In this document: positions 4,601 to 55,646 of the stretch, in pieces
How the letters are laid out: each line of letters starts with the position of its first letter
Position numbering within the stretch: position 1 is the stretch's first letter
IMG/VR virus record: IMGVR_UViG_3300015244_001400
Location: 26,033-90,032 of that record
From: a virus
Lineage: Duplodnaviria > Caudoviricetes
Direction: 5' to 3' (one strand)
DNA: 64,000 nt
Program-made: the position numbers and the translations under genes
Notes under the pieces: model-generated
Seen by the model: only the letters and a program-made list of their open reading frames with translations
Database searches by the model: none
Told to the model about the DNA's origin: nothing

Positions 4601-4631
4601 TCAATTATTACTAACTTTAAATTAAATCAAA

Positions 4632-6089
4632 ATGGCTACATTAGGAAGCAAGCTTCTCGTAAAAGAGATGGAGTGGAATGCCAACATGACTGAGCAATCT
4701 CATTTAGGAGCAGCTCTGATTGCTAAACCACACCGTATTATGGGGGAGATGGACAAATTGTTCTCGGCTCAAAACTATTATTCTGACAATCCAATGTCTT
4801 CTTTGTTAATGGGTAACTCTAAAACAGAAGAAACTATTGGTAATACAGAATGGGAATGGGAATTAAAAGGTGCAAACACTAGACCTCTAGTTGTTGTAGA
4901 AAATGTTGAAGTTGCTAGCAACTTGACTCCTGGAAAATTCAAAAAAACTTTCAAGATTAAACTTGATGAAAACTGGTATTTACCAGGGGATGTTATTATG
5001 CCAGGTACTTCTAACAAGAAATACCAAGTGCGTATTCAAAACCAAGGTGTTAAGCATGGTGATGGTACAGTTTATACTGTAAGAATGAACTCAGATGACC
5101 CACAAGCTTTTATGCCTGTGAAATATTTGAAACCAGGACAACAATGGGGTAAATTATTCTCTCAATATGAGGAAGCTGCTGAGCAATCAGGTTCAACTGT
5201 ATTCAGTTTGCCACTTGCTTTCAGAAACAGAATGTCTAAGTATCGTAAAGAATACAGAATCACTGACTATGCTTCAACTGAAGTATTGGCTGTAGCTATT
5301 CCTGATTCTAAAGGTGCTTACCACAATTCATGGATGCGTTATGCTGAAGTTGAATATTGGCAACAATGGTACAGAGAAGTAGAACGTGGATATTGGTATT
5401 CAAGATCTGCAGATACTGTATTAGGAGCTAATGGAAGACCAGTAAGAATGGGTCCTGGAATTCAAGAGCAATTAGAAGATTCTCATCAACATAGATATTC
5501 TCACTTAACTGCTAAGTTAATTGAAGAGTACTTACAAGATATTTTCTATTCTAGAGTTAAGCCAGGTCAAGGTCGTCAAATTAAAGGTTTCACAGGAGAG
5601 TATGGTATGTTACAATTCCATAGAGCTATCCAAGATTGGCAAAACAAATCAGGTTTCATTAAGAATGTTGAAGTATATACTAATAAAGTAGCTAGTTCAG
5701 TACACACTAATGCACTTGAAGCAGGTTACCAATTTGTGAAATACAACATGGCAAATGGTGCTTCTCTTGAGTTGATTCACAATCCTCTTTATGATGATAG
5801 AGAAATCAACTTTGAAATTGATGAAGTTACAGGTTTCCCAATTGAGTCTCAAAGAATTACATTCTTAGACTTCTCAGGAGAATCTAAAAACTCTAACATC
5901 AAAATCATGAACAAGAAAGATGGTTTTGCTTTCACTTATGTTGAAGGTATGTATGGTCCTTATGGTCCTAAAAATGGTGGTTCTTCTGCACACTCTGGTT
6001 CTTACTATGAAATGCACGTTGAAAAATCATGTGGTATCCATATCCATGACATCACTAAATGTGGAGAATTGATCTTATCTCGTAACTAA
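4632..6089 (+). CDS. Major capsid protein
   Basis: 485 aa with crAss-type MCP features (EWEWEL, G..MGPGIQEQL, LIHNPLYDD). Codon usage looks high-expression (CGT Arg, TTC, AAC). Followed by a terminator-like hairpin. Confidence 0.88.
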   Translation: MATLGSKLLVKEMEWNANMTEQSHLGAALIAKPHRIMGEMDKLFSAQNYYSDNPMSSLLMGNSKTEETIGNTEWEWELKGANTRPLVVVENVEVASNLTPGKFKKTFKIKLDENWYLPGDVIMPGTSNKKYQVRIQNQGVKHGDGTVYTVRMNSDDPQAFMPVKYLKPGQQWGKLFSQYEEAAEQSGSTVFSLPLAFRNRMSKYRKEYRITDYASTEVLAVAIPDSKGAYHNSWMRYAEVEYWQQWYREVERGYWYSRSADTVLGANGRPVRMGPGIQEQLEDSHQHRYSHLTAKLIEEYLQDIFYSRVKPGQGRQIKGFTGEYGMLQFHRAIQDWQNKSGFIKNVEVYTNKVASSVHTNALEAGYQFVKYNMANGASLELIHNPLYDDREINFEIDEVTGFPIESQRITFLDFSGESKNSNIKIMNKKDGFAFTYVEGMYGPYGPKNGGSSAHSGSYYEMHVEKSCGIHIHDITKCGELILSRN

Positions 6090-7720: not shown

Positions 7721-8941
7721 ATGAGTAATCGTAACAATGACGTTTTTCAAGTATTACCTACAAGAGGTAATCAAGCTTTGGCTACAACAGGATCTACTGT
7801 AGATGCTTTATTGCCAGGGCAATTAGGAGTTTTTGATGCTAGCACAGGTTTAGCTTATGCTACTGCAGTACCTGCAGGAACTAAAGCAATTACTTTAGCT
7901 GTTGGTGTTGGTAATGGTTCTGTATTAACAGATATCAGAACTTCTGCTGGTCAATTCATCCAAACTAAAGGTATTACAGATTTAACTTTTAAACCTCATA
8001 CTGCAGGTAGACCTATGAAGGTTACTGTTGGTGGTTTTAAAGCTGAGTGTGATACTGAGTATGGAGTAAGAGTTGAATTCCGTAATGCAAAAATCAACAG
8101 AATCCAAGGATTTAACCAATTCAGCAAAGCTTATATGGTTACAACTCCTTGTTGTGATGATTGTGCTGGAGGATGTGGTTCATTAGATGCTAACGTATTA
8201 ACACAGTTATTTATAGCTAGTATTAATGCTGATGAAGCTAATTTAGTTTTAGCTCAAGCTGTTGCAAGACAAGCTTTAGTAGCTGCTACTCATGGAACTT
8301 CTGTAGACTACGCTGCTGGTGCTGTTATGACTGCTGCTGATGTTGCTGCTTTAATTGTGTTCAACAAAACAGCTTTAGAAGCTAATCAAGTATTTGCTGA
8401 TTTCCAATTAGTAAGTCAACCTTTAGCTATTGGTAACTATTGCTCAATCAACTTACATTACTACAAATTGTTAGAAACAGTTTTAATTGTTTCTTTAATT
8501 GAAGGTTTTGGATGTTCAGGAGCAACTACTGTAAATCAATACCCAGTATTTGAAGAAGGTAGTGGAATCAATATCCAACAAAAAGAGTACCATGCATCAG
8601 GATGGGCAGGTTCAGGACCTTACAAATTGTCTCAAGTAACAGGTATGGGGTATGAAAATATCAACTATCTTTCTGTAAAAGGAACTACTTATGATCAATT
8701 TATTGTTCAGTATAACCAAACTTCTGAATCAGGGTGGCAAGAATACAGTAACGTATTGAGTACTGTAATTGCAATCCCAGAAGCTGACACAGTAACTAGA
8801 CAAGCTGTTGCAACAGTTTTCAATTCTTTCTTATCAGGCTTAGGTTTTGATAGTTTAGTTGATGATGCTGCTGCTGCTAGTACTAATGCTGCTGTAGTAG
8901 AGCCAGAAGTGACTTCTACTGCTACTGATGGTATAGCATAA
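7721..8941 (+). CDS. Abundant virion structural protein (auxiliary capsid/decoration-like)
   Basis: 406 aa, Ala/Thr/Gly-rich, contains PCCDDC. MCP-like high-expression codon usage and followed by a strong terminator. Confidence 0.55.
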   Translation: MSNRNNDVFQVLPTRGNQALATTGSTVDALLPGQLGVFDASTGLAYATAVPAGTKAITLAVGVGNGSVLTDIRTSAGQFIQTKGITDLTFKPHTAGRPMKVTVGGFKAECDTEYGVRVEFRNAKINRIQGFNQFSKAYMVTTPCCDDCAGGCGSLDANVLTQLFIASINADEANLVLAQAVARQALVAATHGTSVDYAAGAVMTAADVAALIVFNKTALEANQVFADFQLVSQPLAIGNYCSINLHYYKLLETVLIVSLIEGFGCSGATTVNQYPVFEEGSGINIQQKEYHASGWAGSGPYKLSQVTGMGYENINYLSVKGTTYDQFIVQYNQTSESGWQEYSNVLSTVIAIPEADTVTRQAVATVFNSFLSGLGFDSLVDDAAAASTNAAVVEPEVTSTATDGIA

Positions 8942-8967
8942 GGAAACTTAAAATAAAGCTATTAGAT

Positions 8968-9003
8968 AAAACATCTCTATTTTTATAGAGATGTTTTTTT
9001 TAT
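8968..9003 (+). terminator. Intrinsic terminator ending the capsid transcript
   Basis: 13-bp perfect stem AAAACATCTCTAT-tttt-ATAGAGATGTTTT running into further T residues. Confidence 0.8.
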
Positions 9004-9007
9004 TTTG

Positions 9008-9015
9008 TATATTTG
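9008..9015 (+). promoter_or_regulatory. Bacteroidota-type -7 element TATATTTG
   Basis: TAnnTTTG immediately after the terminator and 19 nt before ATG 9035. Confidence 0.55.
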
Positions 9016-9034
9016 ACACTTAAAACACTTTCCC

Positions 9035-10237
9035 ATGGCCTTGAATTACACATACTTAAAATACAAAGATACATATACACTTGAAAATACAGGTACTGTG
9101 AATCTGACTTACCATGTTAGCAAAGTAACTTGTGAAGCAACTACTGAGATAAAAACAGCTGTAATGGTTCCTGGACAGATAACTACTTTAAGTTTTCCTG
9201 TTGATGGAGATTACTCTGTTTATCTAGAGTCTAGTACTCAAGTAGGAATGCCTTTTATCATCAAACACTATAATCACTTACTTATGTCCTTTATCAGTAT
9301 GGTAGAAGGAATTGTATGTGGATGCAGTAAGTGTGATGAATGTGAGGAGTGTAATAAATGTGAGGATTACCTTGGGACACTTTTAAAAGCACAAGCTTTT
9401 AATACTTTAAACTACCCTGTTTACCAAGACTATGTGAATCAAATAACTCAAGATTCTCTTTGTGTGTTTAGTGAAACAGTTCTATGTGGTTTATTACATG
9501 AAAAAGTGTATGGAAATCCTGAAGTAAAAGAGGCTATGTTGAGACTAATTAGTTTTTACTACCTAGCTTTTTACTATCAAGATAAATTTTTAGCTGTAGA
9601 TGCAGAAGAGAAAGCTTATGTTACAGAGAAATATAAGTTTGATAAGATAGCAGCATGTATGAGAAAGTTAGGTATTATACCTACAGACCCTTTATTCATG
9701 ACTACTACCACTACTACTCTTGCTCCTAGTACTACAAGTACTACGACTACTAGTAGTACAACTACTACAACTACACCTCCTAGTAGCACAACTACAACTG
9801 TGCCTCCTAGCAGTACTACAACAACAAGTAGTACTACAACTCAACCTACTACAAGTACTACAACTACTTTAGCACCTTGTGCTTTAGATGGTACTGCAGT
9901 GGAAGTAACAGGTACAACAACTAGCACAAGCACTAGCACAACTACTGCTCCAAGTACTACTACCTCAAGTTCAACAACTTCAACTACTACCACTACTGCT
10001 CCAACCACAAGTACTAGTACTACAACAAGTACAAGTACAACTACGGAACCTCCTTTAGAGTGTATTAGTTATACTTTAAATGCTCCTGGTGTTTCAGGAG
10101 AATATAATCAAGCAGAGTACATAGATTGTGCAGGACAGCCTCAAGTTATAGAAGCTCATGGATATGTTAATGCAACTTTCTGTGCAACTGAAATACTATT
10201 TGGAATGCCTTTTGCAAATGGTACAGGAGGCTGTTAA
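9035..10237 (+). CDS. Cys-rich structural-type protein with mucin-like Thr/Ser/Pro tracts
   Basis: N-terminal ~220 aa folded region (CGCSKCDECEECNKC). Then two T/S/P tracts (about 9701-9877 and 9908-10054) separated by CALDGTAVEV, and a small Cys-containing end domain. Confidence 0.7.
   Translation: MALNYTYLKYKDTYTLENTGTVNLTYHVSKVTCEATTEIKTAVMVPGQITTLSFPVDGDYSVYLESSTQVGMPFIIKHYNHLLMSFISMVEGIVCGCSKCDECEECNKCEDYLGTLLKAQAFNTLNYPVYQDYVNQITQDSLCVFSETVLCGLLHEKVYGNPEVKEAMLRLISFYYLAFYYQDKFLAVDAEEKAYVTEKYKFDKIAACMRKLGIIPTDPLFMTTTTTTLAPSTTSTTTTSSTTTTTTPPSSTTTTVPPSSTTTTSSTTTQPTTSTTTTLAPCALDGTAVEVTGTTTSTSTSTTTAPSTTTSSSTTSTTTTTAPTTSTSTTTSTSTTTEPPLECISYTLNAPGVSGEYNQAEYIDCAGQPQVIEAHGYVNATFCATEILFGMPFANGTGGC
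9701..10054 (+). repeat. Thr/Ser-rich low-complexity coding repeat
   Basis: Encodes runs such as TTTTTTLAPSTTSTTTTSS using mixed ACT/ACA/ACC/AGT codons. Confidence 0.9.
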
Positions 10238-10239
10238 AA

Positions 10240-10638
10240 ATGGTTGAGTTAATTAAAAAGATTGCTGCTTCTAAAGAAGATGTTGTCTTTGTAGGAAGTT
10301 TATGTTTGTGGCATTTGGGTCTGGTAATAGACCCTAGAGACATAGATATAGTTGTTAATAGTTTAGATGGTTTAGAAGAGTTTGGAGAAATAAAATTTTG
10401 GAATACTAAATCTCCTATGAGTGTGAGTAAAAAAAGAGCTCACATAAAAAGAGAAGACTATGATATAGATATTTTTATTGAAGAGACTTTACCAGAGCAC
10501 ACTATGATAAGTGGCATTAAGTTTCAGACTTTAAAAGATTTAAACAACCATATTAACTTGGTTATTAATACTTCTGAAGGACAGCTTAAAAACATAATGA
10601 TTGAAAAGAAAATAAAATATTTTAAACCAAGAATCTAA
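10240..10638 (+). CDS. Minimal Pol-beta-fold nucleotidyltransferase
   Basis: Signature hGS (G19-S20), DID (D34/D36) and a later IDIF strand (D77). Confidence 0.7.
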   Translation: MVELIKKIAASKEDVVFVGSLCLWHLGLVIDPRDIDIVVNSLDGLEEFGEIKFWNTKSPMSVSKKRAHIKREDYDIDIFIEETLPEHTMISGIKFQTLKDLNNHINLVINTSEGQLKNIMIEKKIKYFKPRI

Positions 10639-10650
10639 AACTTACAAGAT

Positions 10651-11877
10651 ATGATAGTCTTAATAACATTGCCAATAGCAGGACCTTCAACAGGACCTTT
10701 TAGCCTTTACTCTAATGTAGATGGTTATACAACTCCTTTTGAAATACAGGTTCCTAAACCACTTTTAGTAGCTGGCTACACTAGTGTTTCAGTACCTGCA
10801 GGAACTACTATAATTCAAGTAAGATCTTTAGGGACTTGTACTAATAGTATTAACTTACCTATTAACTTATTAGGGACTAGTACAACTACTACATCAACAA
10901 GTACTACTACTGCCCCTACAACCACAACAACAACTGTACCTACTACTACTACAAGTAGCACCACAACTAGCACTAGTACAACTACAGTTCCTACAACAAC
11001 TACTAGCACTACTACTGTAGCTCCTATGGTATTAGAATTATATGGACCTTGTAATGAGACAACTGAATATGTTGCATATAATGCAGCTTTAACATCTTTA
11101 CCTGGAGTTTATACTGCTACAAATGGTTTTCCTTATGAAGTAGTTAGTGCAACTCCTGTGAGTGGTACTGCCACAGTTGTTATTACTGATTTATCAAATT
11201 ATGATAACTTAAACAATTGGCTAACAATTAACTTAGCTTGTCCTGGAGGAACCACTAGTACTAGTACTAGTACAACTAGTACTACTACTACAGTTGCACC
11301 AACAACTACCACAACAACCACTAGTACTACCACAACAACTGAGGCTCCTACCACAACAACTACTACACAAGCCCCAGCTGCTTGTAGTGAATTAGAAATA
11401 TACCCTCCACTTACACCAGGAACTACTCACACAGTAGTGTTCTTGACTTGTGAATGGGGTACTCAAGAAACAATTAATATTCCTTATGGAGGAACTATGG
11501 GTTCTATCTGTGTTCAACCTGGAGGAGTAATTTCAGATAATGGCTCTGCAGTTAATGCAATGACATATCCTACTCAAATGGTTTGTATAGGTAACACTAC
11601 TACAACTACTACAACAACTACTACTCCACCTCCTGCAAATAACTACAGCTTTTTCCGTTGTTCAGGAACTGGTATAGCTAGTGTAGTTGTAAGTGAAGCT
11701 TCTTTAATTAATGCAGGTATGGCACCAGGAGCAATTCTTAGTTCAATGAACACTATAGAAATAACAGGTTCAGGTAATGTAAATAGTTGCTATAGTTTTG
11801 ATGACATGACTTCTGCTTCTCTTACAGGTCCAAGTGTTGTAAGCTTTGATCAATGTGAGTGTTTAAGTCCAGCATAA
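10651..11877 (+). CDS. Mucin-like Thr-rich protein with Cys-paired small domains
   Basis: N-terminal beta domain (GPFSLYSNVDGYTTPF...CTNSINL). Three Thr tracts alternate with small Cys-containing domains. Confidence 0.75.
   Translation: MIVLITLPIAGPSTGPFSLYSNVDGYTTPFEIQVPKPLLVAGYTSVSVPAGTTIIQVRSLGTCTNSINLPINLLGTSTTTTSTSTTTAPTTTTTTVPTTTTSSTTTSTSTTTVPTTTTSTTTVAPMVLELYGPCNETTEYVAYNAALTSLPGVYTATNGFPYEVVSATPVSGTATVVITDLSNYDNLNNWLTINLACPGGTTSTSTSTTSTTTTVAPTTTTTTTSTTTTTEAPTTTTTTQAPAACSELEIYPPLTPGTTHTVVFLTCEWGTQETINIPYGGTMGSICVQPGGVISDNGSAVNAMTYPTQMVCIGNTTTTTTTTTTPPPANNYSFFRCSGTGIASVVVSEASLINAGMAPGAILSSMNTIEITGSGNVNSCYSFDDMTSASLTGPSVVSFDQCECLSPA
10876..11634 (+). repeat. Three Thr/Ser/Pro tracts (about 10876-11025, 11251-11376, 11596-11634)
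   Basis: Direct translation, e.g. TSTTTTSTSTTTAPTTTTTTVPTTTT. Confidence 0.9.
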
Positions 11878-11878
11878 T

Positions 11879-12805
11879 ATGAGATATGTATGTGCACAAC
11901 CTGCTTCAAGTTTTTACACTTGGCAAGTAGAAGTAGTTATAAATAACTTTAAAAAACAGGGTGTCAATCCTAATAAAATTGACATCCTTTGTGCAATAAA
12001 TGATAATGTAGTTCCTGAAGAATGGAGAAAATTACAAAATCATTATAATACAGTTAGGTTCTTTTTTTACAATGATACTAGAGCAGATAAGAGTTATATA
12101 CCTTCTATCTACTTTAATCTAATGAGTAACCACATGAAAGCTAATCCTGACTTAATAGGCCAAAGGTTATTCTTACATGATAGTGATATAATCTTTACTA
12201 GAACTCCAGAAGTGGATTGGGCAATGCCAGGTAAAGTTTGGTACTTAAGTGATACTAACTCTTACATCAACTATGATTACATCCAACAAAAAGGTAATCA
12301 TATTTATGAAGATATGTGTGAGATTGTAGGTATAGATAAGTTGATACCTAAATTAATGAATAGTCATTCAGGAGGAGCCCAGTATATTACTGTTGGAGAA
12401 ACTTCTGAATTTTGGGATAAAATAGAGAGTGATAGTGTCAAACTTTATTCTTACTTTTGTAAAACAGAACATCTCTACAATAAAAAGTTTGAAGGAGATT
12501 TTCCTATCCAAAAATGGACTGCAGGGATGTGGGCCTTTCTTTGGAATATTTGGTTAAAAGGTCATGAAACAAAAGTGGATTCTAGACTTAATTTTGGTTG
12601 GAGTACTGATCATGTTTCTTCAGTAGAAAAGTATTGGATACTACACAATGCAGGTGTGTCTGCAACAGATAAAAACATGTTCTTCAAAGGTAATTACATA
12701 CAGGAGTTACCATATAATAAAGAACTAGTTGTAGATGAAAACAGAGCCAGTTCTTACTATTGGAAGGAAATTCAAGAGACAAGTAAACAAACAATATTAA
12801 TATAG
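11879..12805 (+). CDS. GT-A glycosyltransferase, GT95/GT96 (HPAT/SERGT)-like
   Basis: DxD motif LHDSDII (D101-D103). Ordered motifs FYTWQ, YIPS, SGG and WTAGMW parallel YFDWQ, YPAIN, LDADMII, VGG and WISEMY of plant peptidyl-serine galactosyltransferase as recalled. GT-A call is firmer than the family call. Confidence 0.7.
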   Translation: MRYVCAQPASSFYTWQVEVVINNFKKQGVNPNKIDILCAINDNVVPEEWRKLQNHYNTVRFFFYNDTRADKSYIPSIYFNLMSNHMKANPDLIGQRLFLHDSDIIFTRTPEVDWAMPGKVWYLSDTNSYINYDYIQQKGNHIYEDMCEIVGIDKLIPKLMNSHSGGAQYITVGETSEFWDKIESDSVKLYSYFCKTEHLYNKKFEGDFPIQKWTAGMWAFLWNIWLKGHETKVDSRLNFGWSTDHVSSVEKYWILHNAGVSATDKNMFFKGNYIQELPYNKELVVDENRASSYYWKEIQETSKQTILI

Positions 12806-12810
12806 TAATC

Positions 12811-13338
12811 ATGCAAGAATTACAAAAGATAAGGAGAGACATAGCCTGGCTTATAGAGCAAACTAAATGTCTTACCCAAGAGAGTAACTTAGAGTCTCCT
12901 TTGGTGGCTACTGAGTGGTCTCCTAATCATTCTGTGGCAACAGGTAATCCTTACATCTTAGGTTGTTTTGTTTGGTTTCAAGGTCATGTATATCAAAGTC
13001 TGATGGATGACAATTCCTTTCCTCCTACTAATGATTGTTATTGGACAGACTTAGGAGAAGGACATTTATTGTTAGAAGAGCAATCTGATTGGAATGCTAC
13101 TACAGGTAGACCTTTTATTAGAAACAAGCCTATCATTATTAATGATAAGACTTACATACACAATCAAGTAGTAGCTTCTGCTTCTTGGTTAGTGCAACAT
13201 GATTTAAACAAATATCCTTCAGTTTCCATAGTGGACTCTGGAGACAATGTAGTTATAGGGGACATTCAGTATATTGATTTAAACAATATTTTGATTACCT
13301 TTACATCTACATTTTCAGGAAAAGCATACTTTAACTAA
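12811..13338 (+). CDS. Small fibre/adaptor protein with a CBM5/12-like module
   Basis: EWSPNHS...YILGCFVWFQGHVYQSL...PP...W resembles chitin-binding-type CBM5/12 modules. C-terminal WLVQHDLNKYPSVSIVD domain is common in phage fibres. Confidence 0.5.
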   Translation: MQELQKIRRDIAWLIEQTKCLTQESNLESPLVATEWSPNHSVATGNPYILGCFVWFQGHVYQSLMDDNSFPPTNDCYWTDLGEGHLLLEEQSDWNATTGRPFIRNKPIIINDKTYIHNQVVASASWLVQHDLNKYPSVSIVDSGDNVVIGDIQYIDLNNILITFTSTFSGKAYFN

Positions 13339-13352
13339 AAAACAATAAGATC

Positions 13353-14744
13353 ATGATTTACTTAAGTAATCTCAATTTAAGCAAGAATCAATTACAGAAT
13401 GCTGTAATTCATCCTTTGGGTACAGCCCCAGCTAGTCCAGTAGAAGGACAACTTTACTATAACTCTTCTGCAGGAGTTAAGATGCTATATGTTTATAATG
13501 GGACTGCTTGGGTACCTGTTGGAGATATAACAGCTATCTCTTCTACAGAGTCAAGACTTATTGTAACTAATGGTACAACAGGAGATGTATCTTTATCTCT
13601 AGATATTGCAACAGTTGTTGCTAATGGAGGTACAGGACTTGTTACTGCTGATTTACTATATGACTATGTAGCTGGATTAGATGCTGTCTATTCTATTACT
13701 GCAGGTACAGGTATATCTGTTACAGGTACAAGTACAGACCCTATCATTACAAATACTGACTTAGGTTCTTCTCAAGCTATCTTTAAAAACATAGCAGTAG
13801 CAGGACAAAGTACAGTTGTAGCTGATAGTAACAATGATACTCTTACAATAGCAGCAGGAGGTAATGTAACAATTACAACTAATGCTACTACAGATACTGT
13901 TACAATCTCTTCAACAGATACTAACACTACTTATGATTTAACTAATAGTGCTACTGCAGGAGGTTCTGCAATCTTGTTAACTGGTTCTGATCTTTCTCAA
14001 GATTCTGTGACTATTGTAGGTACTACTAATGAAATTGAGGTGACTCATGCAGCAGGTTCTATCACAGTAGGTTTACCTAACAACGTAACCATAACAGGTA
14101 ACTTAACAGTAATTGGTACTACCACTACAAACAATGTAGAAACTGTATCAACTTCTAATGGAGTTATCTTTGAAGGTAATGCTGCTGATGCTAATGAATT
14201 AACTTTAATAGCAGGTACATTAACTGCTGACCAAGTAATTACTTTACCAGATGCAACAGGTACAATAGCTTTATTAAGTAATATTGGTAATGGTACTCTT
14301 ACAGTTACTGCAGGTACTGCAATGTCAGGAGGAGGTTCTTTTACAGCTAACCAATCAGGTAACAGTTCTGTAACAATTAACCATGCTGCTGTATCAAGAA
14401 CAAATAACACTAGTTCTGCTTCTCCAGGAGTTGGAGGTAGTTTCACAGTTATTGACACTGTAACAACTTCAACTGAAGGACACATCACAGCAGTTAATAC
14501 TAAAACAATTACTTTACCAGCTAATAGTGCTACTTCTTTTGCTACTACAATTTCTGTATCAGGGACTGTTACACATGGTTTAAGTACAAAAGATGTGATA
14601 GTACAATTATATGACACATCAACAAATGAAACAGTTTATGCTGATGTAGTGAGAGTAAATACAGCTCCTTACAACACAATAACAGTTACTTTTGGAAATG
14701 CACCAGCAAATCCAATTAGAGTTTTAGTTTCTAAAATAGGATAA
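13353..14744 (+). CDS. Tail fibre / spike protein
   Basis: 463 aa, T/G/A-rich beta repeats (ITAGTGISVTG, ITGNLTVIGTTTT). C-terminal VTHGLSTKDVIVQLYD domain resembles the end of the previous ORF. Confidence 0.7.
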   Translation: MIYLSNLNLSKNQLQNAVIHPLGTAPASPVEGQLYYNSSAGVKMLYVYNGTAWVPVGDITAISSTESRLIVTNGTTGDVSLSLDIATVVANGGTGLVTADLLYDYVAGLDAVYSITAGTGISVTGTSTDPIITNTDLGSSQAIFKNIAVAGQSTVVADSNNDTLTIAAGGNVTITTNATTDTVTISSTDTNTTYDLTNSATAGGSAILLTGSDLSQDSVTIVGTTNEIEVTHAAGSITVGLPNNVTITGNLTVIGTTTTNNVETVSTSNGVIFEGNAADANELTLIAGTLTADQVITLPDATGTIALLSNIGNGTLTVTAGTAMSGGGSFTANQSGNSSVTINHAAVSRTNNTSSASPGVGGSFTVIDTVTTSTEGHITAVNTKTITLPANSATSFATTISVSGTVTHGLSTKDVIVQLYDTSTNETVYADVVRVNTAPYNTITVTFGNAPANPIRVLVSKIG

Positions 14745-14769
14745 TACATCCTTAAATTAATAGATTGAT

Positions 14770-17700
14770 ATGTCTCAAAAATTTAAAAGTGAAGTAGAAC
14801 TTCAAGCTTTAAATGCTGCTACCACAGATACTGATAAATTCTTAGTATCTGATGGTGGCATCATTAAGTTTAGAACAGGGGCTGAGATGTTATCTGACTT
14901 AGGTGTGGCACCTGGAGTAGCCTCTAATATTCAACATCAAGTAAAAGCAGGAGTAGCAATAAATAAAGGACAAGCAGTGTATGTATCTTCAGCAGATGGT
15001 ACTAATATGATTGTGTCTTTAGCTTCTAATGCTACAGAAGCAACCTCATCAAAAACAATGGGGTTATTGGCAGACACTGTTGCTATAAATGGTTTTTCTA
15101 ATGTTATAGCTGAAGGTTTACTTGCAGGATTAGACACATCTACTGCAGTGGCAGGAGACCCTGTTTGGTTAGGCACAGGTGGAAACCTTATTTATGGTTT
15201 AGCTAATAAACCTTATGCACCAGCTCACTTAGTGTTTATTGGGATTGTAACTAGAGTCAATGTTAATAATGGAGAAATCTTTGTAAAGGTCCAAAATGGA
15301 TTTGAACTTGATGAACTTCATGATGTAGATGTAAAAAGCTTAACTCCTGTTAGTGGACACCTTTTAGGATTTAATGGCAACTTATGGGTAAATAAAACTA
15401 TTGCAGGTTGGTTAGGATATACCCCTGCAAATTCAGTACACAACCATGATGATAGGTATTATACAGAAACAGAATCAGACTCAAGATTTGTAAATGTTAC
15501 TGGAGATACAATGACAGGCACACTTCAAATTAATGGTAGTTGGGCAACAACTATATTAGATGGAGACAATGTTGTTGTAAGAAAACCTAACTATCCTTCA
15601 GGAGGTTGGGCAAGAGCTTTACTTAATTTTCAAGAATATACTGGTACATCTTTGTATCAAATAGGTGCTTATGGTAGTGCCAATACCTATACTTATGGTT
15701 ATTTAGGTGTAGGTTATAATGACACTGTTATAAAATGGTATCCTAATAAAGAAGTAATTTTTGACAACGTTATAAAAGCCCCTACCTTTTCTGACTCAAA
15801 CAATACTGCTTATTATTTAGATCCTGCTGCTATGTCTAACATACATAACATAACAGCAACTTCTTTTATAAAATCAGGAGGCACTTCTGCTCAAATATTA
15901 GCAGCAGATGGGTCTGTAATTACAGCAGGTACAAATATCACTATAAGTGGAGGAGTAATATCCTCTACAGGAGGAGCCTCTTATACCCTTCCTACAGCTA
16001 CAAGTACTGTACTAGGAGGAATTGAACTATTTAGTGACACAGTACAGACAGTTGCAGCAAACACTGTTTCAACAACTGCTTCAAGAACTTATGGTTTACA
16101 ATTAAACGCAGCAGGACAAGCTGTTGTAAATGTGCCTTGGGTTGACACAAACACAGTGTACACTCATCCTGCTTATACAACAAGAAGTATAGATACATCA
16201 GGAGCACAAGTTATTGATATCTTTACTTCAGATGCTATAGGTAGTGTAACAAACATTACTACTAGAACAATGACATTAGGAGATCTTGGATATACAGGAG
16301 CTACTAATGCTAATTACTATGTACTACCTTTTACAGATAACTCTGCTAACTGGAATACAGCATACTCATGGGGTAACCATGCTGGGTTATATGCTTCTTC
16401 TTCACATACACATACCTTTGACTCTTTAACTGCTAAGACATCAGGTACAGGTACTTATCAAACTACAGGAGAGTTTATACAAAATAATGGTAAATATGTT
16501 AGAGACAGTTACTACAGAACTATAAGTGGAAGAAGTGATCTTTATTCTGGAGGTTCTGAAGGATGGTATACTGCTGCTCAAGTAACTTTAACAAGTAATT
16601 GTAGTGGAGCTGTATTATATGGTACACTTAATGACCATAGATATAATGGTGCTGACTCTTATCAAATAGCTGTAGTAGCTAGAGCTGAATGTGATTTTGA
16701 TACTAATAACCAATCTCACTATGTGAATGTTGGTTGTACAATTCTTGGTAGTACAAACTACACTAACTATAGAAGTAAGATAAGAGTAGTTTTAACTACT
16801 TCAACTACTAACAATAGAACTTACCAATTACAATTTTTTGAAACTGCTTGGAATAATGATACTTGGCAATTAGAAACTAATGGTTGGACAATCTATAATT
16901 CTCCACAAACAGCTTCTGCTCAAGTAGGGACACCTTTAGTAAACTATGTGTCTAATCAAAATGCAGATTATCAAAGAGCAAATACAGCTACATACTCACC
17001 TATATTTTATGACAATGATAATACAGCATACTACTTAAATCCAAATGGAACTAGTAATCTTTACATTGTAAATGCTACTTATTATTTAGTTACTCCTACA
17101 ATATATAGTGGTGGAGGTAGTGTGTCTTTTGGAAATGATGTACAACTTAGTGGTAATTATTTAAGATTTGATGAGAATGGAGTTAGATCTTGGAATCAAA
17201 GAGCTACAGGAGGTAATTTAGTTTTAAACAGTGGAGATGGTAATGGAAATCTTGTTGTAAATGGTAATGCAATAATTCATTCAGGTAATATTGGAAGTCA
17301 GTCTGTAAGTTATGCAACTTCAGCTGGAAATGCTGATACATTAGATGGGTTACACGCTTCATCATTTTTGACTAGCTATTCTGAAACTGACACGTTATTA
17401 ACAGTAACTGGAAGAGGAAATACTACTACTACTCAAATAGGAGCTGTTAACTTTTTTGACACAAATGTAGGGACTTATAATGTTAACTTAGGTTCAGGAG
17501 GTTCAGAAGGAAGAGGTTTAGTGGCAGGGTATTCAGGAGGTTCCTATGGAGGTATTGGATATAATGTTAGACATACTACTACAGGAGGAAATTGGATTGC
17601 TCCTGGTACAGATACTTCAACTTATTTATTGTTTACAGCAGGAGGGTTTTCTTTCCTAGGAGCAGGAGCAGGAGCTGCTGGAAGAACTTTATCTTACACC

Positions 17701-18882
17701 ACTTTAGGAAGCCTTAATAGTGGAGGCCTTTATGTACCAATAATGTATGATTCAAATAATACAGGATACTTTTGTGACCCTACTAGTACCTCTAACTTAG
17801 TTGGATTAACAGTAACTAACACAATCAGTGGTAATATAACAGGAAATTCAGGTACTGTATCTAGTATTACAAACATAACAGGATTAATGGTTAACAAGTT
17901 AGCTGCTCCTGCACTGATTGATACACTTACAACTGCTAACTTTAGAAGTACTTTATTTGGGACAACAGCTAATGGTTATCAAATATCAGCAGCTAGATGG
18001 AATACAACACCAGCACCTTTAGGAGGTTTAGGCTCTTATGGTACTATGCTTTCTTGGTCAGGTAGTGATACGCATGGTTTTATAGCTATGGATTATTCTG
18101 CAGCTGCCCTTAGAGTTGGAGGAGGAAATGCAAACAATATTAACTGGACTAGACAAGTAATTATAGAAGACACTTGGGTAAATAGTAAGTATCTTGCATC
18201 AGATGGAAGATTCTATGGTACTATATACTATGATGCAAATGATTCTGCATACTGGGTAGATCCTGCCAGTTCAACAACTTCTGCAAATTTTCTTTCTAAG
18301 ATAACTATACAAGGAGGTTCTAATAGCAATACTACTATAGCACAAGCTGTTAATAGTTATGGAAGTCCTTCTTTAAGTGCTTACTATGGGACTTTATATA
18401 GCTCTAATATATTTTATGCTGGAAATCCTACAGGTACAGCTTATAATGTATATGGAGCTGATGCTCAATTTTATACTTACTATGATAGAAATAATACTGC
18501 TTATTACTTTGATGGTAGTAACACAGGAGATTCTATTAGAGTTGCAGGAGACATTGTAGCTTACTATTCTGATGACAGATTAAAAGATAGAAAAGGAAAT
18601 ATTGAAAATGCAATAGAAAAAGTTTTATCTTTGAATGGTTTTTACTATGAGGCAAATCAAAAAGCTCAAGAGTTAGGATACAAAAAGAAAATGGAAATAG
18701 GGGTATCTGCTCAAGAAGTAGAGGCTATTCTTCCTGAATTAATAAAGGATGCTCCTATAGGACAAGGTTATAAGACTTTAGACTATGGAAGATTAACACC
18801 TTTATTAATTGAAGCTATTAAAGAGCAACAAAAACAAATTGAAGAATTAAAAGAATTAGTAAATAAATTAATCACTAAATAA
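14770..18882 (+). CDS. Long tail fibre with C-terminal intramolecular chaperone (Peptidase_S74)
   Basis: C-terminus YYSDDRLK...GVSAQEVEAILPEL...DYGRLTPLLIEAIKEQQKQIEEL is the S74 signature. Internal YDxNNTAYYxDP repeats. Confidence 0.85.
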   Translation: MSQKFKSEVELQALNAATTDTDKFLVSDGGIIKFRTGAEMLSDLGVAPGVASNIQHQVKAGVAINKGQAVYVSSADGTNMIVSLASNATEATSSKTMGLLADTVAINGFSNVIAEGLLAGLDTSTAVAGDPVWLGTGGNLIYGLANKPYAPAHLVFIGIVTRVNVNNGEIFVKVQNGFELDELHDVDVKSLTPVSGHLLGFNGNLWVNKTIAGWLGYTPANSVHNHDDRYYTETESDSRFVNVTGDTMTGTLQINGSWATTILDGDNVVVRKPNYPSGGWARALLNFQEYTGTSLYQIGAYGSANTYTYGYLGVGYNDTVIKWYPNKEVIFDNVIKAPTFSDSNNTAYYLDPAAMSNIHNITATSFIKSGGTSAQILAADGSVITAGTNITISGGVISSTGGASYTLPTATSTVLGGIELFSDTVQTVAANTVSTTASRTYGLQLNAAGQAVVNVPWVDTNTVYTHPAYTTRSIDTSGAQVIDIFTSDAIGSVTNITTRTMTLGDLGYTGATNANYYVLPFTDNSANWNTAYSWGNHAGLYASSSHTHTFDSLTAKTSGTGTYQTTGEFIQNNGKYVRDSYYRTISGRSDLYSGGSEGWYTAAQVTLTSNCSGAVLYGTLNDHRYNGADSYQIAVVARAECDFDTNNQSHYVNVGCTILGSTNYTNYRSKIRVVLTTSTTNNRTYQLQFFETAWNNDTWQLETNGWTIYNSPQTASAQVGTPLVNYVSNQNADYQRANTATYSPIFYDNDNTAYYLNPNGTSNLYIVNATYYLVTPTIYSGGGSVSFGNDVQLSGNYLRFDENGVRSWNQRATGGNLVLNSGDGNGNLVVNGNAIIHSGNIGSQSVSYATSAGNADTLDGLHASSFLTSYSETDTLLTVTGRGNTTTTQIGAVNFFDTNVGTYNVNLGSGGSEGRGLVAGYSGGSYGGIGYNVRHTTTGGNWIAPGTDTSTYLLFTAGGFSFLGAGAGAAGRTLSYTTLGSLNSGGLYVPIMYDSNNTGYFCDPTSTSNLVGLTVTNTISGNITGNSGTVSSITNITGLMVNKLAAPALIDTLTTANFRSTLFGTTANGYQISAARWNTTPAPLGGLGSYGTMLSWSGSDTHGFIAMDYSAAALRVGGGNANNINWTRQVIIEDTWVNSKYLASDGRFYGTIYYDANDSAYWVDPASSTTSANFLSKITIQGGSNSNTTIAQAVNSYGSPSLSAYYGTLYSSNIFYAGNPTGTAYNVYGADAQFYTYYDRNNTAYYFDGSNTGDSIRVAGDIVAYYSDDRLKDRKGNIENAIEKVLSLNGFYYEANQKAQELGYKKKMEIGVSAQEVEAILPELIKDAPIGQGYKTLDYGRLTPLLIEAIKEQQKQIEELKELVNKLITK

Positions 18883-18890
18883 CAAACAAA

Positions 18891-19262
18891 ATGGAATACA
18901 CTTGGAAAATCACAGGAGTGAAAACAATGGATACTGATAGTGTTGAAAATGCTATTGTCCAAACTTATTGGGAAAAAACTGGTACTGATGCTGAAGGTAA
19001 TGAAGGCAAATTTACAGGGGCTACCCCATTTCCTAAATCTAGTATTGACCCTGATAAATTTGTCTCTTTTGACAAACTAACAGAAGAAGTAGTATTAGGA
19101 TGGATTAAAGATGTTGTAATAGGTTCTTATGAAGAACATGTTAACAGTCAAATTCAAAAACAAATTGATGCTAAAATAATCAAACAACCTTCTTTGCCTT
19201 GGGCACCTGAAGAAGTTGTAGAACCTATTATAGAACCAGTTGTACTAACTACAGAAGAGTAA
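18891..19262 (+). CDS. Tail-fibre-associated small protein
   Basis: 123 aa (YTWKI...LTEEVVLGWIK...LPW), a type often found next to S74 fibres. Confidence 0.5.
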   Translation: MEYTWKITGVKTMDTDSVENAIVQTYWEKTGTDAEGNEGKFTGATPFPKSSIDPDKFVSFDKLTEEVVLGWIKDVVIGSYEEHVNSQIQKQIDAKIIKQPSLPWAPEEVVEPIIEPVVLTTEE

Positions 19263-19268
19263 TAAGTT

Positions 19269-19685
19269 ATGCCTTTACCTGGTAGTGGACAATTAAGCTT
19301 TTCAGCAATAGCAGGTGAGTTAGGTGTATCTCTTAGTAATGTATCTCTAAGAAATATGTCTAGCTCAGCTAGCTTTTCTACACCTGATAGGGTCAGTGAT
19401 TTTTATGGTTACACTTCAGGAGGAAGTGTTACTTATACTTACTTTAATTCTTACTATGCAGGAGACCCTTGTAACTATGATTACTGGGATATTTACTTAG
19501 GGAGTGATGGAGTATACTACAGGTTTGATGGGACATATTATGACCCTATGTATAATTATACAGATTTTTGGTATGAGTTCTTATATTATGAACCAGGTTT
19601 TGGAGCTAATGTTTACAATGTTTGGGAAATAAACATCCCTTCAACAACATTAACAGATCAAGGATATGCTTTAAGCTACTGTTAA
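19269..19685 (+). CDS. Fibre-associated small virion protein
   Basis: N-terminal MPLPGSGQLSFSAIAGEL...SDFYGY motif followed by a Tyr-rich domain. Confidence 0.5.
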   Translation: MPLPGSGQLSFSAIAGELGVSLSNVSLRNMSSSASFSTPDRVSDFYGYTSGGSVTYTYFNSYYAGDPCNYDYWDIYLGSDGVYYRFDGTYYDPMYNYTDFWYEFLYYEPGFGANVYNVWEINIPSTTLTDQGYALSYC

Positions 19686-19695
19686 AAAATAAGAT

Positions 19696-20211
19696 ATGGT
19701 TTATAATATAGAATCTTACTACGTTAATGAAGACTTTGCTACAGAACTGTTGGTAGAATTTCAAGAGAATTTTACAACAGGAGATAGAGCAATGGTCTAT
19801 TATCATTTGAGAAATTTAAATAGTGTGACAGGAGCTTATTTTATGTCTCAAGATTACTATGTAGAATTACCTTATAAAATCTTATTTGAAGATAAGATGA
19901 TTATTACAGGGAACAAGTTTCAAGATTTAATGTCAGGAGCAGTATCTGCATTAGATATAGTTTTAGCAGAAAGACCTGACATAAGATTTAAAAAGAAAAA
20001 AGGAGTTATTCTTTTAGATGCTTGTTTTGGTAGTGAGTTAGGTGTGTTTTATCTAGATGCTCCTTCTTTTCTAGATTCTACTTTTATCTACACAGATGCT
20101 GCACTAACAAAGAAGTTTGAATATTTTGGAATAATCTCAGACAATGAATATTTTAGTGAATACAACTCTAAGAATGGATTGCAAGGATTAAAGCCTTGTG
20201 ATTTTAGATAA
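19696..20211 (+). CDS. Hypothetical protein
   Basis: 171-aa ORF tightly packed in the operon. Confidence 0.6.
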   Translation: MVYNIESYYVNEDFATELLVEFQENFTTGDRAMVYYHLRNLNSVTGAYFMSQDYYVELPYKILFEDKMIITGNKFQDLMSGAVSALDIVLAERPDIRFKKKKGVILLDACFGSELGVFYLDAPSFLDSTFIYTDAALTKKFEYFGIISDNEYFSEYNSKNGLQGLKPCDFR

Positions 20212-20212
20212 T

Positions 20213-20249
20213 TATATTTGTTTTAAATAAAACAAAATTTGTACATTTG
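20213..20249 (+). promoter_or_regulatory. Full Bacteroidota promoter (-33 TTTG / -7 TACATTTG), tandem with a second TATATTTG
   Basis: TTTG at 20217-20220, 21-nt spacer, TACATTTG at 20242-20249. 20213-20220 is itself a TAnnTTTG. Confidence 0.6.
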
Positions 20250-20277
20250 TAAATCATTTAACATAAAAAAAGAAAAT

Positions 20278-20544
20278 ATGGAAAGTCAAGTTCAAGAAGT
20301 AAACAAAATCTCAGAAGAAGAATTGGAAAATGCAAGAGCATTACAAAATGTAATTGCTTCTACTCATCAGAAAATTGGAGATTTAGAATTAGCTAAAATG
20401 GATTTATTGTATGAAGCTAACACTCACAGAGAGAGTTTAAAAAAACTAGGTGCAGACTTAGAAGCTAAGTATGGTAGAATCACTATTAATTTGGGTACAG
20501 GAGAGTACTCTTTAATTCAAGAAGGAGATGGCAGTAAAGTCTAA
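20278..20544 (+). CDS. Small coiled-coil protein (possible fibre chaperone)
   Basis: 88 aa from ATG 20278 (track's TTG start overlaps the promoter). Coiled coil followed by YGRITINLGTGEY. Confidence 0.55.
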   Translation: MESQVQEVNKISEEELENARALQNVIASTHQKIGDLELAKMDLLYEANTHRESLKKLGADLEAKYGRITINLGTGEYSLIQEGDGSKV

Positions 20545-20665
20545 CTCAACAACTTTTGAGCCAAGGCCAAAAGTAAAAAGACCAGGTGTTCACTCTAAAA
20601 GTAAAACCTCTAAATTAAAAACGTCTAAAAGTTATAAAAAACTTTATAAAGGACAAGGAAGATAA
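20528..20665 (+). CDS. 45-aa highly basic protein (not in ORF track)
   Basis: Hand translation MAVKSNSTTFEPRPKVKRPGVHSKSKTSKLKTSKSYKKLYKGQGR*. Fills the gap before the holin. Confidence 0.65.
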   Translation: MAVKSNSTTFEPRPKVKRPGVHSKSKTSKLKTSKSYKKLYKGQGR

Positions 20666-20678
20666 GAATTTTTTTACC

Positions 20679-20686
20679 TATTTTTG
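20679..20686 (+). promoter_or_regulatory. -7 element TATTTTTG before holin
   Basis: TAnnTTTG 14 nt before ATG 20701. Confidence 0.4.
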
Positions 20687-20700
20687 TAAAGACTTAAATC

Positions 20701-21285
20701 ATGGAAAAGTCATTGAAGATTTTATTAATATTAAAAATAAGTGTTATGGAGTGGATAACCCTATACAGTAAGTATTTTTTTAAACTAGGACTTAGTTTAA
20801 AGACAATGGGATCTAGTCCCGCAGGCATTATTACAGGAACTTCTGTAGTAGCCATTTCTGTTTTATCCTCAGTACAAAAAGCACTGTTGTTATTATTACT
20901 ATTCTTCATCCTGGACTTTATCACAGGCATTTTAGCTTCTTGGAAAGAGAAGAGAGAAAATGAAAAGACCAAACCTGAACTTAAAGAAGAGTCTCTTATC
21001 TCTTCAGACAAACTAAAACTTTCTGCTGTAAAAGCTTTTACCTATGCTAGTGCTATATTAGGAGTATGGGGAATAGAGAAAGTGTTTTTCATTAGAACTT
21101 TTAAGTTTGATAATGTAAGTACAGAAGGTCTAACTATCACTTTAATTTTTATTGGCTTTTGTTGTGCTATAGAGTTCTATTCAATTGTGTTTGAGAACTT
21201 TAAAAGAATGGGCTTTGACATAGCTAAGAGGTTTATCCAAGTAGTTAAGAATACAAAAAAGATTATCTTTCAAGTAGAAAAATAA
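20701..21285 (+). CDS. Holin (Phage_holin_4-like)
   Basis: Several TM segments, LDFITGILAS, SSDKLK and EFYSIVFENFKRMG, basic C-terminus. Start uncertain (20701, 20746 or 20806). Confidence 0.75.
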   Translation: MEKSLKILLILKISVMEWITLYSKYFFKLGLSLKTMGSSPAGIITGTSVVAISVLSSVQKALLLLLLFFILDFITGILASWKEKRENEKTKPELKEESLISSDKLKLSAVKAFTYASAILGVWGIEKVFFIRTFKFDNVSTEGLTITLIFIGFCCAIEFYSIVFENFKRMGFDIAKRFIQVVKNTKKIIFQVEK

Positions 21286-53796: not shown

Positions 53797-54690
53797 ATGA
53801 ACAAACCTCTTAGATTAAAGCCACATGAAATTAAGGCTTTAGACCTCCCTGTCCATATCCACAACAGATATAGATTAAAAGGAGAAAAATTAGAACAACT
53901 CTTAGCTTTAAGAGAAGATCAAAATGACATCAAAAGACTATTCTTTGATATTGAGACTTCTCCTAACATTGTTTACACTTGGAGGGCTGGTTGGAATATT
54001 ACTGTCACACCTGAGAGTATCATAGAAGAAAGAAGAATTATTTGTATCTCCTATAAATGGGAAAACAAAGATAAAGTTCATAGAATTGCTTGGGATAAAA
54101 ACATGTGTGACAAGCAAATGCTTATTGATTTTTTAAAAGTAGCTAACCAAGCTGATGAATTAATTGCTCATAATGGAGATAGATTTGACATCAAATGGAT
54201 AAGAACAAGGTGTATTTTCCACAGAATTCCAATGTTCCCTGCTTATAGAACTTTAGACACTCTTAAAAAAGCAAAATCAGGGTTCTATTTCAACTCTAAC
54301 AAATTAGATTACATAGCTAGATTCCTAAAGGTAGGAGCCAAGATGGAAACAGGAGGCTATGATTTATGGAAAGAAGTTATGAAGAATAACTTAGAAGCTT
54401 TAGAAACTATGGGTCAGTACTGTGACCAAGACGTAATTGTTTTAGAAGCTGTCTACCAAGAAATGAAAAACTACTTTAAACAAAATACTCATCAAGGAGT
54501 CTTAGATAGTAAAAGTAAATATAGTTGCCCTTCTTGTGGCTCTGAAAAGATTGACTATTTAAAAATGGTATCTACACCAGCAGGAACTGTGAAAAGAGTT
54601 ATGAAATGTAAACCTTGTAGTCATGTTTATGAGATCAGCAATGCATCTTATATTCTTATGCTAAAATTTCAATCAAAGAACTTCTTATAA
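53797..54690 (+). CDS. DEDD 3'-5' exonuclease (RNase_H_2/YprB-like) with C-terminal Zn ribbon
   Basis: FFDIETSP (ExoI), HNGDRFD (ExoII), YCDQDV (ExoIII); CPSC...CKPC. Confidence 0.8.
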   Translation: MNKPLRLKPHEIKALDLPVHIHNRYRLKGEKLEQLLALREDQNDIKRLFFDIETSPNIVYTWRAGWNITVTPESIIEERRIICISYKWENKDKVHRIAWDKNMCDKQMLIDFLKVANQADELIAHNGDRFDIKWIRTRCIFHRIPMFPAYRTLDTLKKAKSGFYFNSNKLDYIARFLKVGAKMETGGYDLWKEVMKNNLEALETMGQYCDQDVIVLEAVYQEMKNYFKQNTHQGVLDSKSKYSCPSCGSEKIDYLKMVSTPAGTVKRVMKCKPCSHVYEISNASYILMLKFQSKNFL

Positions 54691-54742
54691 TGGAAAAAAA
54701 AGACCTCAAGTGAGGATTTTAACAATTATAATGGAAAAAAAG

Positions 54743-54775
54743 AAAGAGTAAGGAATTAACCTTACTCTTTTTTTT
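54743..54775. terminator. Bidirectional terminator at the convergence of the two gene blocks
   Basis: AAAGAGTAAGG-aattaa-CCTTACTCTTT (11-bp stem) with an A-run upstream and a T-run downstream. Confidence 0.85.
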
Positions 54776-55103
54776 ATGGGTATGTGTAATGTAATATATG
54801 AGTAAAATCTGGGTCTTTTTTATCCAGTCTAGCTACACAAGGTAACCACTCTCTAAAATCAGAAGTTATTTCTGCATACTTAGATATTATTAAACAATGT
54901 TTTAAGTGCTGTTCTAAGAACATTTCTTTAGTTACTCCTTTACAAGTAATGTGCATGTTTTTAACAGGTTGTAATAATACTTCCACATAATCTCCTACAT
55001 CATAGTGCACATAAACTGCACTAGAGTGGACTATTTCATTACCATTAGTTTCTACCAAATATTTTGGGTAGATAGGTAAAGCTAAGATTTCTTCTTTTAT
55101 CAT
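54774..55103 (-). CDS. Hypothetical protein
   Basis: 109-aa ORF ending at the terminator. Confidence 0.6.
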   Translation of the reverse strand: MIKEEILALPIYPKYLVETNGNEIVHSSAVYVHYDVGDYVEVLLQPVKNMHITCKGVTKEMFLEQHLKHCLIISKYAEITSDFREWLPCVARLDKKDPDFTHILHYTYP

Positions 55104-55270
55104 CTCTTTTTTTTAATTATTGCTTTGAATTCTTCATCCGTTTTAAATCTTTCATTATGACATCTGTCACAAAGTAAAACATTTGTAGCTTTACCTATAG
55201 AGATTATTGTTCTGCAAATATTGCATAACATAGCTCCATTGCCATTATTAAATTTATGGATTGGTTTCAT
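55100..55270 (-). CDS. 56-aa Zn-finger protein (not in ORF track)
   Basis: MKPIHKFNNGNGAMLCNICRTIISIGKATNVLLCDRCHNE...; two CxxC pairs; ATGA overlap with the next gene. Confidence 0.65.
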   Translation of the reverse strand: MKPIHKFNNGNGAMLCNICRTIISIGKATNVLLCDRCHNERFKTDEEFKAIIKKKR

Positions 55271-55394
55271 AAGACTGATTTAAAATCTTACAATATAGGT
55301 TATTAACTCTTTCAGAATTAATTCCTCTGTCTCTATAAAAACTCATTACTTTCTTAATTCTTGTAATAGGTTTAAAATAATTTGGTTTTGCCAT
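55254..55394 (-). CDS. 46-aa basic hypothetical protein (not in ORF track)
   Basis: MAKPNYFKPITRIKKVMSFYRDRGINSERVNNLYCKILNQSYETNP*. Confidence 0.5.
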   Translation of the reverse strand: MAKPNYFKPITRIKKVMSFYRDRGINSERVNNLYCKILNQSYETNP

Positions 55395-55432
55395 AATAGT
55401 GAAATGTATTTAATTTAAGTGAAAAAAGCTTA

Positions 55433-55467: not shown

Positions 55468-55468
55468 A

Positions 55469-55642: not shown

Positions 55643-55646
55643 AATT

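Follow-up and report, generated by a model that had tools for sequence, protein, structure and literature searches.

A glycosyltransferase-like gene beside Ser/Thr-rich genes of a crAss-like phage

The stretch of DNA analysed here (64 kb, called the window below) is part of a 90,032-base IMG/VR record, IMGVR_UViG_3300015244_001400, which is judged to be 96% complete. It belongs to a crAss-like phage; in the capsid protein this phage shares 82% identity with the Flavobacterium psychrophilum phage FpV4 group and shows a more distant relationship to Bacteroides crAss-like phages. Our subject is a gene at 11879..12805 that encodes a predicted glycosyltransferase, together with the poly-Ser/Thr tracts of two proteins encoded upstream of it, which are its candidate acceptors. 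The gene lies within the late structural block, with genes for the large terminase, portal and major head protein upstream and genes for a 1370 aa (amino acid) tail-fibre protein and a 1949 aa virion protein downstream. Across the window, poly-Ser/Thr tracts occur in just two open reading frames (ORFs), both within 3 kb upstream of the enzyme gene. The features concerned are the following.

9035..10237, + strand: candidate acceptor A, 400 aa, 31% Ser+Thr, with an N-terminal domain homologous to a 248 aa protein of FpV4
9722-9799, 9803-9868 and 9905-10051, + strand: tracts of candidate acceptor A, C-terminal to the homologous domain
10240-10638, + strand: ORF with a nucleotidyltransferase fold, 132 aa, between the two tract-bearing genes
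10651..11877, + strand: candidate acceptor B, 408 aa, 36% Ser+Thr, directly upstream of the enzyme gene
10870-11016, 11245-11346 and 11590-11631, + strand: poly-Thr/Ser tracts of candidate acceptor B, with short non-repetitive segments between them
11879..12805, + strand: glycosyltransferase gene, 308 aa with an ATG start; predicted soluble protein with a GT-A fold, PHROG 4417, no Pfam family

The start codon of the enzyme gene lies one base past the stop of the gene upstream. Over its full length the protein matches PHROG 4417 ("unknown function") with an E-value of 2.8e-68, and a collection of 5.8 billion proteins holds 1894 homologs at E <= 1e-3; an exhaustive search yielded 824 cluster representatives. 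The single-domain homologs listed are called "hypothetical" wherever their source names them, and PHROG 4417 is a large unannotated family with thousands of members labelled in this way. A Pfam scan of the protein at E <= 1 returned nothing, and searches of the PDB by single sequence and by profile gave only chance matches (VirA, geminin) and no solved relative.

Of the two candidate acceptors, A matches phrog_15330 with its residues 75-214, and B has no PHROG or meaningful Pfam match and no relative in cultured phages. In the counterparts of B in other phages just the first ~70 residues (10651-10860) are kept, at 42-56% identity, and past the first tract both length and sequence vary. This N-terminal segment may be a virion-anchoring or enzyme-docking domain.

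Conserved motifs and predicted fold

An earlier note on this DNA, made from the letters alone, had described one ORF with six motifs in a set order. All six were located in that order in the 308 aa protein, and their conservation was assessed in two alignments, one of 67 metagenomic relatives and one of 79 copies in bacterial genomes from two phyla.

FYTWQ, residues 12-16, 11912..11926, + strand: W15 and Q16 conserved; N-terminal Rossmann-type nucleotide-binding region
YIPS, residues 73-76, 12095..12106, + strand: Y73 invariant
LHDSDII, residues 99-105, 12173..12193, + strand: DxD (D101-S-D103), presumed metal and nucleotide-sugar site
HSGGAQY, residues 163-169, 12365..12385, + strand: G166 and Q168 invariant
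WTAGMWAF, residues 213-220, 12515..12538, + strand: W213, M217 and W218 invariant
WILHN, residues 253-257, 12635..12649, + strand: H256 invariant

The motifs coincide with invariant or near-invariant columns (W15, Q16, Y73, D101, D103, G166, Q168, W213, M217, W218, H256 and N257). Both aspartates of the DxD are invariant in the cross-phylum alignment of 79 sequences; among the 67 metagenomic relatives D103 never varies and D101 is kept in at least 90%, and H256 is invariant in both sets. D101-x-D103 followed by H256 is the DxD...His pattern of metal-dependent GT-A enzymes. By analogy with GT-A enzymes the DxD presumably binds the metal, and H256 is presumed to be the third metal ligand, as in GT8-type enzymes.

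An AlphaFold2 model of the protein (mean predicted local distance difference test score, pLDDT, 97.1; predicted template modelling score, pTM, 0.93) has a single Rossmann-like alpha/beta/alpha GT-A fold, in which strand 1 begins at residue 2, the LHDSDII block comes right after the central strand E96-100 and H256 lies on strand E254-256. Hydrophobic segments are absent (the highest Kyte-Doolittle mean over 19 residues is 0.65) and the fold begins at residue 2, so the protein is predicted to be soluble and cytoplasmic. The closest solved folds are LARGE1, XXYLT1, GlyE, Skp1 alpha-GalT and UGGT, most of which extend existing glycans. Template modelling (TM) scores to GT8/GT24-type structures are ~0.45-0.53, at 7-12% sequence identity, and the model has the fold of GT8-type retaining enzymes, so that retaining stereochemistry, and an alpha linkage, would be expected from the model. 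With the GT-A fold, the invariant DxD and His, and fusions to other glycosyltransferase domains described below, the assignment of the gene as a glycosyltransferase, already made in the earlier note, is borne out.

Poly-Thr tracts lie upstream of the enzyme gene in distant loci

The arrangement seen in the window recurs elsewhere. Among 80 related IMG/VR loci, the same-strand ORF immediately upstream of the enzyme gene carries a tract in 52 of 73 cases and the one downstream in none of 70. Tract density over these loci is 1.1 per kb in the first kb upstream, falls to ~0.05 per kb at -6 to -10 kb and is almost nil downstream. The same one-sidedness is found in 80 loci of bacterial genomes (Bacteroidota and Bacillota, with enzymes 30-50% identical), where 62 strict tracts lie upstream vs. 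2 downstream within 3 kb; with a relaxed definition of a run the numbers are 146 and 8. A tree of 150 enzyme domains includes 117 unfused enzymes, 103 of which are preceded by a run in the 3 kb upstream, and the pairing occurs in two deep clades, one of Bacillota phages (40/43) and one of environmental phages that includes the window (67/79).

When the tracts of 99 tract-bearing upstream proteins were masked, the proteins fell into 27 clusters without BLAST similarity between clusters, which argues that the enzyme follows the tract and not one particular neighbour. Six cultured phages of unrelated lineages also have poly-Thr in neighbour proteins. C-terminal poly-Thr tails are found on the annotated major tail or tail tube proteins of phiFL1A (Enterococcus), RQ1 (Staphylococcus), phiCTP1 (Clostridium) and iLp84 (Lactobacillus), and on the major head protein of iLp84; Semele and iLp84 have poly-Thr repeats on small proteins, and Chryseobacterium phage MA9V-3 has an internal poly-Thr tract in an unannotated protein.

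Phage FpV4, a close relative, provides a natural comparison. Its structural genes are collinear with those of the phage studied here, it has no homolog of the enzyme, and no Ser/Thr runs were found in the 25.5 kb region compared. The 248 aa FpV4 protein, itself free of such runs, aligns with residues 79-184 of acceptor A only. The ~110-residue tract region of acceptor A is therefore an addition in the enzyme-bearing phage.

Three observations on individual family members may be mentioned here. In RQ1 (locus L083, 4229-4931) the annotated major tail protein ends in seven Thr, and an overlapping ORF in another frame (4620-4931) encodes ~60 further residues of poly-Thr repeats; this ORF may lengthen the tail tube protein through a programmed frameshift, or it could reflect a sequencing or annotation error. 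The enzyme copy of Lactiplantibacillus fabifermentans (L162, 6001-6894) has an in-frame stop codon and may be a decaying prophage gene. Family copies also occur on contigs binned as metagenome-assembled genomes (MAGs) of Cyanobium (L087), a Woesearchaeota member (L110) and proteobacteria (L096, L098), all taxa distant from Bacteroidota and Bacillota; these may be mis-binned viral contigs or may come from carriers with a wider host range.

Fused relatives and a cellular branch

Many relatives are longer, multi-domain proteins. Domains added among 95 representatives include Glyco_transf_7C (8), GT2 (7), GT6 (3) and a GT32-type DXD domain (2), and further partners are GT29 sialyltransferase, formyltransferase, radical SAM/SPASM and methyltransferase domains. 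The fusions to radical SAM/SPASM or S-adenosylmethionine-dependent methyltransferase domains are found in close relatives, and those to GT29 sialyltransferase or formyltransferase in more distant ones; P0123, P0007, P0293, P0294, P0315 and P0316 are among the fused relatives. This set of partners hints at elaborate or modified glycans. In the fusions with listed match positions the domain is usually N-terminal (exceptions include P0129, P0135, P0145 and P0264), a placement that would suit an enzyme initiating a glycan for others to extend or decorate.

In one clade, which has 27 rows and a support of 97 by the Shimodaira-Hasegawa-like approximate likelihood ratio test (SH-aLRT), the genes lie on chromosomes of Chitinophaga, Pedobacter, Mucilaginibacter and Sphingobacterium. 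In this clade 26 of the 27 rows have no nearby tract, and the domain is fused to Glyco_transf_7C. Its neighbours are a LanC-like protein, a C39-peptidase ABC exporter, a radical SAM/SPASM enzyme and GT11- and GT4-like genes, a make-up like that of clusters for ribosomally synthesized and post-translationally modified peptides (RiPPs). Such clusters lie at 2577-10104 of L097 and 5125-12190 of L102, both Chitinophaga chromosomes, and also in L095, L103, L106, L111, L114 and L119. Judged by their gene content, these loci may be clusters for a modified, probably glycosylated, ribosomal peptide. Their RiPP-like make-up provides a second, independent tie of the family to peptide substrates, and the link suggests an unexplored class of glycosylated peptides.

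Proposed function and alternatives

The predicted fold, the DxD...H residues, the fusions to sugar-handling enzymes and the one-sided tract linkage form the basis of the reading that we prefer. We propose, with a probability of roughly 70%, that the protein is a soluble, metal-dependent GT-A enzyme of the retaining, GT8-like structural type that acts in the cytoplasm as a peptide O-glycosyltransferase on the poly-Thr/Ser tracts of phage particle proteins; its catalytic activity, its stereochemistry, its donor sugar, the tract as acceptor and the virion location of the tract proteins are all things that we infer. Late in infection, the enzyme would take a nucleotide sugar from the host cytoplasm, probably a uridine diphosphate (UDP)-hexose or UDP-N-acetylhexosamine (UDP-HexNAc), and would move the sugar onto Thr/Ser hydroxyls in the tracts of the products of 10651-11877 and 9035-10237, so that the virion would bear mucin-like tails or linkers carrying glycans. 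The earlier note had likewise suggested a soluble peptide O-glycosyltransferase. The solubility is upheld by the protein's own features, and support for peptide acceptors comes from gene context.

Several observations weigh against this proposal. No run lies within 3 kb of 14 of the 117 unfused enzymes. The converse of the pairing holds in part only. Viral loci were picked arbitrarily for runs of ten or more Thr; of the 36 with enough room downstream just 6 have the enzyme nearby, so that poly-Thr tracts do not generally need it. In the 7 of these loci that have an enzyme match, whatever the room, its gene always follows directly downstream on the same strand. Adjacency of enzyme and tract is a correlation, and the 80 viral loci are relatives of one another. 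Neither acceptor A nor acceptor B has an annotated function, and gene position is the sole ground for placing them in the virion. Finally, GT8-like enzymes are often chain extenders and not chain starters.

This last point leads to the alternative that survives best, in which the enzyme extends a glycan that a host enzyme has started on the tract, or acts on another feature of the same proteins. The five closest solved folds named above mostly belong to chain-extending enzymes. On the other hand, a search restricted to the GT2, GT8 and GT1 families found no gene of any of the three in the 96%-complete phage genome, with positive controls, and the genome holds one copy of the enzyme family; barring the involvement of a host enzyme, the protein itself must then be its substrate. 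Bacteroidota carry out general O-glycosylation in the periplasm, whereas phage proteins fold in the cytoplasm, which speaks against a glycan started by the host. The N-terminal position of the domain in fusions, with typical extending glycosyltransferases behind it, also speaks for an enzyme that begins the chain. We therefore regard the chain-extender explanation as unlikely.

The target might also not be a protein at all. Phage glycosyltransferases are best known for DNA glucosylation and serotype conversion (PMC12619734), and the enzyme could modify phage DNA or a host envelope polysaccharide or teichoic acid (receptor masking), its poly-Thr neighbourhood being a historical accident. Such an accident would have to account for a one-sided linkage that spans 27 unrelated acceptor clusters and two deep clades. 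The gene's position in the late structural block, between capsid and tail-fibre genes, the soluble nature of the protein with no membrane segment, and the occurrence of the cellular branch in peptide-maturation clusters and not in polysaccharide loci likewise make a non-protein target decidedly improbable. It is a very remote prospect that the tracts receive a sugar-phosphate or another non-glycosidic group, as with Stealth or GlcNAc-1-phosphotransferases (GlcNAc, N-acetylglucosamine). That the protein has a GT fold but no activity, and helps the tract-bearing proteins as a chaperone or structural partner, is barely credible: nothing specific favours it, the DxD and His show strict conservation in both phyla, and fusions of the domain to other glycan-synthesis enzymes recur.

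A broader version of peptide O-glycosylation by this family is conceivable but doubtful. It would be a portable tag-and-glycosylate system that acts in the cytoplasm on any protein or peptide with poly-Thr and makes mucin-like coats of phages in at least two phyla and glycosylated ribosomal peptides of Bacteroidota, with the family as a prokaryotic and viral sister group of the extensin-glycosylating GT95/GT96 enzymes.

Relationship to GT8 and to plant GT95/GT96

The earlier note had likened the protein to plant and algal GT95/GT96 enzymes that act on peptides. The functional half of this comparison agrees with the gene context, which points to Ser/Thr-rich peptides; the family half fares less well, as the 11879-12805 protein itself has no match to the HPAT model PF23452. 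Profile searches with the GT95 and GT8 models, among the checks that the note had proposed, matched the protein with neither. With PF23452, the record of the phage itself gave nothing at E <= 0.001 and five cultured-phage records gave nothing at E <= 10; five bacterial genomes that hold the family gave a single match, of 11.4 bits (E 0.51). The Glyco_transf_8 model PF01501 has no match in the phage genome at E <= 0.1, with positive controls, and is absent from the Pfam tallies of relatives.

Among ~240 relatives scanned, 2 match PF23452 at E <= 1. The best of them, P0196, is 36% identical to the phage protein and reaches 21.9 bits (E 1.3e-4; the curated cut-off is 23.9) in an alignment that runs collinearly from position 9 to position 230 of the 307-position profile. 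Of two sets of ten relatives examined for HPAT, the first gave nothing and the second gave P0196, below the cut-off. PF23452 gave the best Pfam E-value among the relatives scanned. In the ESM Atlas it is found on ~10% of the members of neighbouring clusters, which is suggestive only, and it is one of just two named Pfam families on the nearest named clusters; none of the best 120 matches listed in a family-profile search carries a precomputed PF23452 annotation. By sequence HPAT scores better than GT8, because the Pfam GT8 model appears in none of the relatives' tallies.

HPATs have been described as related to GT8 (PMC4908140), so a GT8-like fold is compatible with the GT95/GT96 idea and does not refute it. 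For the same reason, the note's view that a best match to GT8 with no GT95/GT96 affinity would count against its proposal turns out to be ambiguous. GT95 is predicted to have a GT-A-type fold, and a 2021 classifier suggested a novel fold for GT96 (PMC8476585); the two families are related, and their plant members are anchored in the Golgi membrane (PMC8012813). Taken at the sequence level, kinship of the phage enzyme with plant GT95/GT96 is weakly suggested.

Plant and algal HPAT (GT95) and SGT1 (GT96) act directly on repetitive hydroxy-amino-acid peptide motifs, as we propose for the phage enzyme. The plant enzymes differ in their membrane anchor, the phage protein being soluble with no hydrophobic segment, and in their acceptor, which is hydroxyproline (Hyp), or Ser in Ser-Hyp4, instead of the Thr/Ser of poly-Thr. 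From the retaining GT8/GT24 enzymes (LgtC, glycogenin, GlyE, the LARGE1 xylosyltransferase domain and the UGGT catalytic domain) the phage enzyme is set apart by the identity of 7-12% and by the missing Glyco_transf_8 match. Giant-virus capsid glycosylation enzymes (PBCV-1 A064R, mimivirus R699) match its structure less well than GT8/GT24 does, and they work in eukaryotic hosts and on other acceptor sites than the ones proposed here.

Comparison with known phage self-glycosylation

Virion glycosylation is described for the mycobacteriophages Che8, Corndog and Myrna (Freeman et al. 2023, cited by PMC12363180 and by PMC12619734), where phage glycosyltransferases modify the phages' own capsid and tail tube proteins, at their C-termini according to PMC12619734. 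As far as the papers found go, self-glycosylation of phage particles has been shown experimentally in mycobacteriophages only. The cultured phages that carry the enzyme described here resemble these, in that they too have extra C-terminal poly-Thr tails on annotated capsid and tail tube proteins. They differ in the enzyme, in having a recognisable poly-Thr tract as the putative acceptor and in their Bacteroidota and Bacillota hosts, and their glycosylation is a prediction. In a tblastn search of 50,697 phage records with the 11879-12805 protein, 77 records matched at E <= 1e-5 and no Mycobacterium phage was among them; at the level of BLAST, the mycobacteriophage glycosyltransferases are not homologs of the phage enzyme. 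Full-text literature searches on poly-Thr tracts and glycosylated phage structural proteins outside mycobacteriophages yielded no description of the family, or of the tracts as phage glycosylation sites.

If our proposal is true, self-glycosylation would also occur in Bacteroidota phages, crAss-like ones among them, and in many phages that infect lactic acid bacteria, enterococci, staphylococci and clostridia. It would there use a different enzyme and an acceptor signal that is simple and recognisable, and a family of thousands of proteins labelled hypothetical would gain a function. The virion proteins that are modified would become predictable, which matters in phage therapy for the stability, adsorption, mucus binding and immune recognition of phages. 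In addition, the enzyme could serve as a small soluble tool for O-glycosylating poly-Thr tags.

Other genes of the region

The ORF at 10240-10638 separates the two tract-bearing genes. Its fold is that of a minimal nucleotidyltransferase, and its matches in the ESM Atlas are AbiEii and aminoglycoside-adenylyltransferase-like clusters, with structure TM-scores of 0.70-0.79 by query and 0.41-0.73 by target. It was considered as part of a cassette with the enzyme and rejected, since a relative is present in 1 of the 80 viral loci and 0 of the 80 genome loci. The two genes downstream of the enzyme were rejected likewise, being found in 2/80 and 1/80 related loci.

Collinearity with FpV4 is broken at window 8941-20701 vs. 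15260-20179 of the FpV4 locus (L168). In the window this stretch holds the tract proteins, the enzyme and the 1370 aa tail-fibre gene; FpV4 has unrelated genes there, for a 663 aa protein and a peptidase. The stretch looks like a swappable host-interaction region. Farther along the window, GC skew and AT skew flip sign at ~54000-56000, which suggests a switch of the coding strand between gene blocks.
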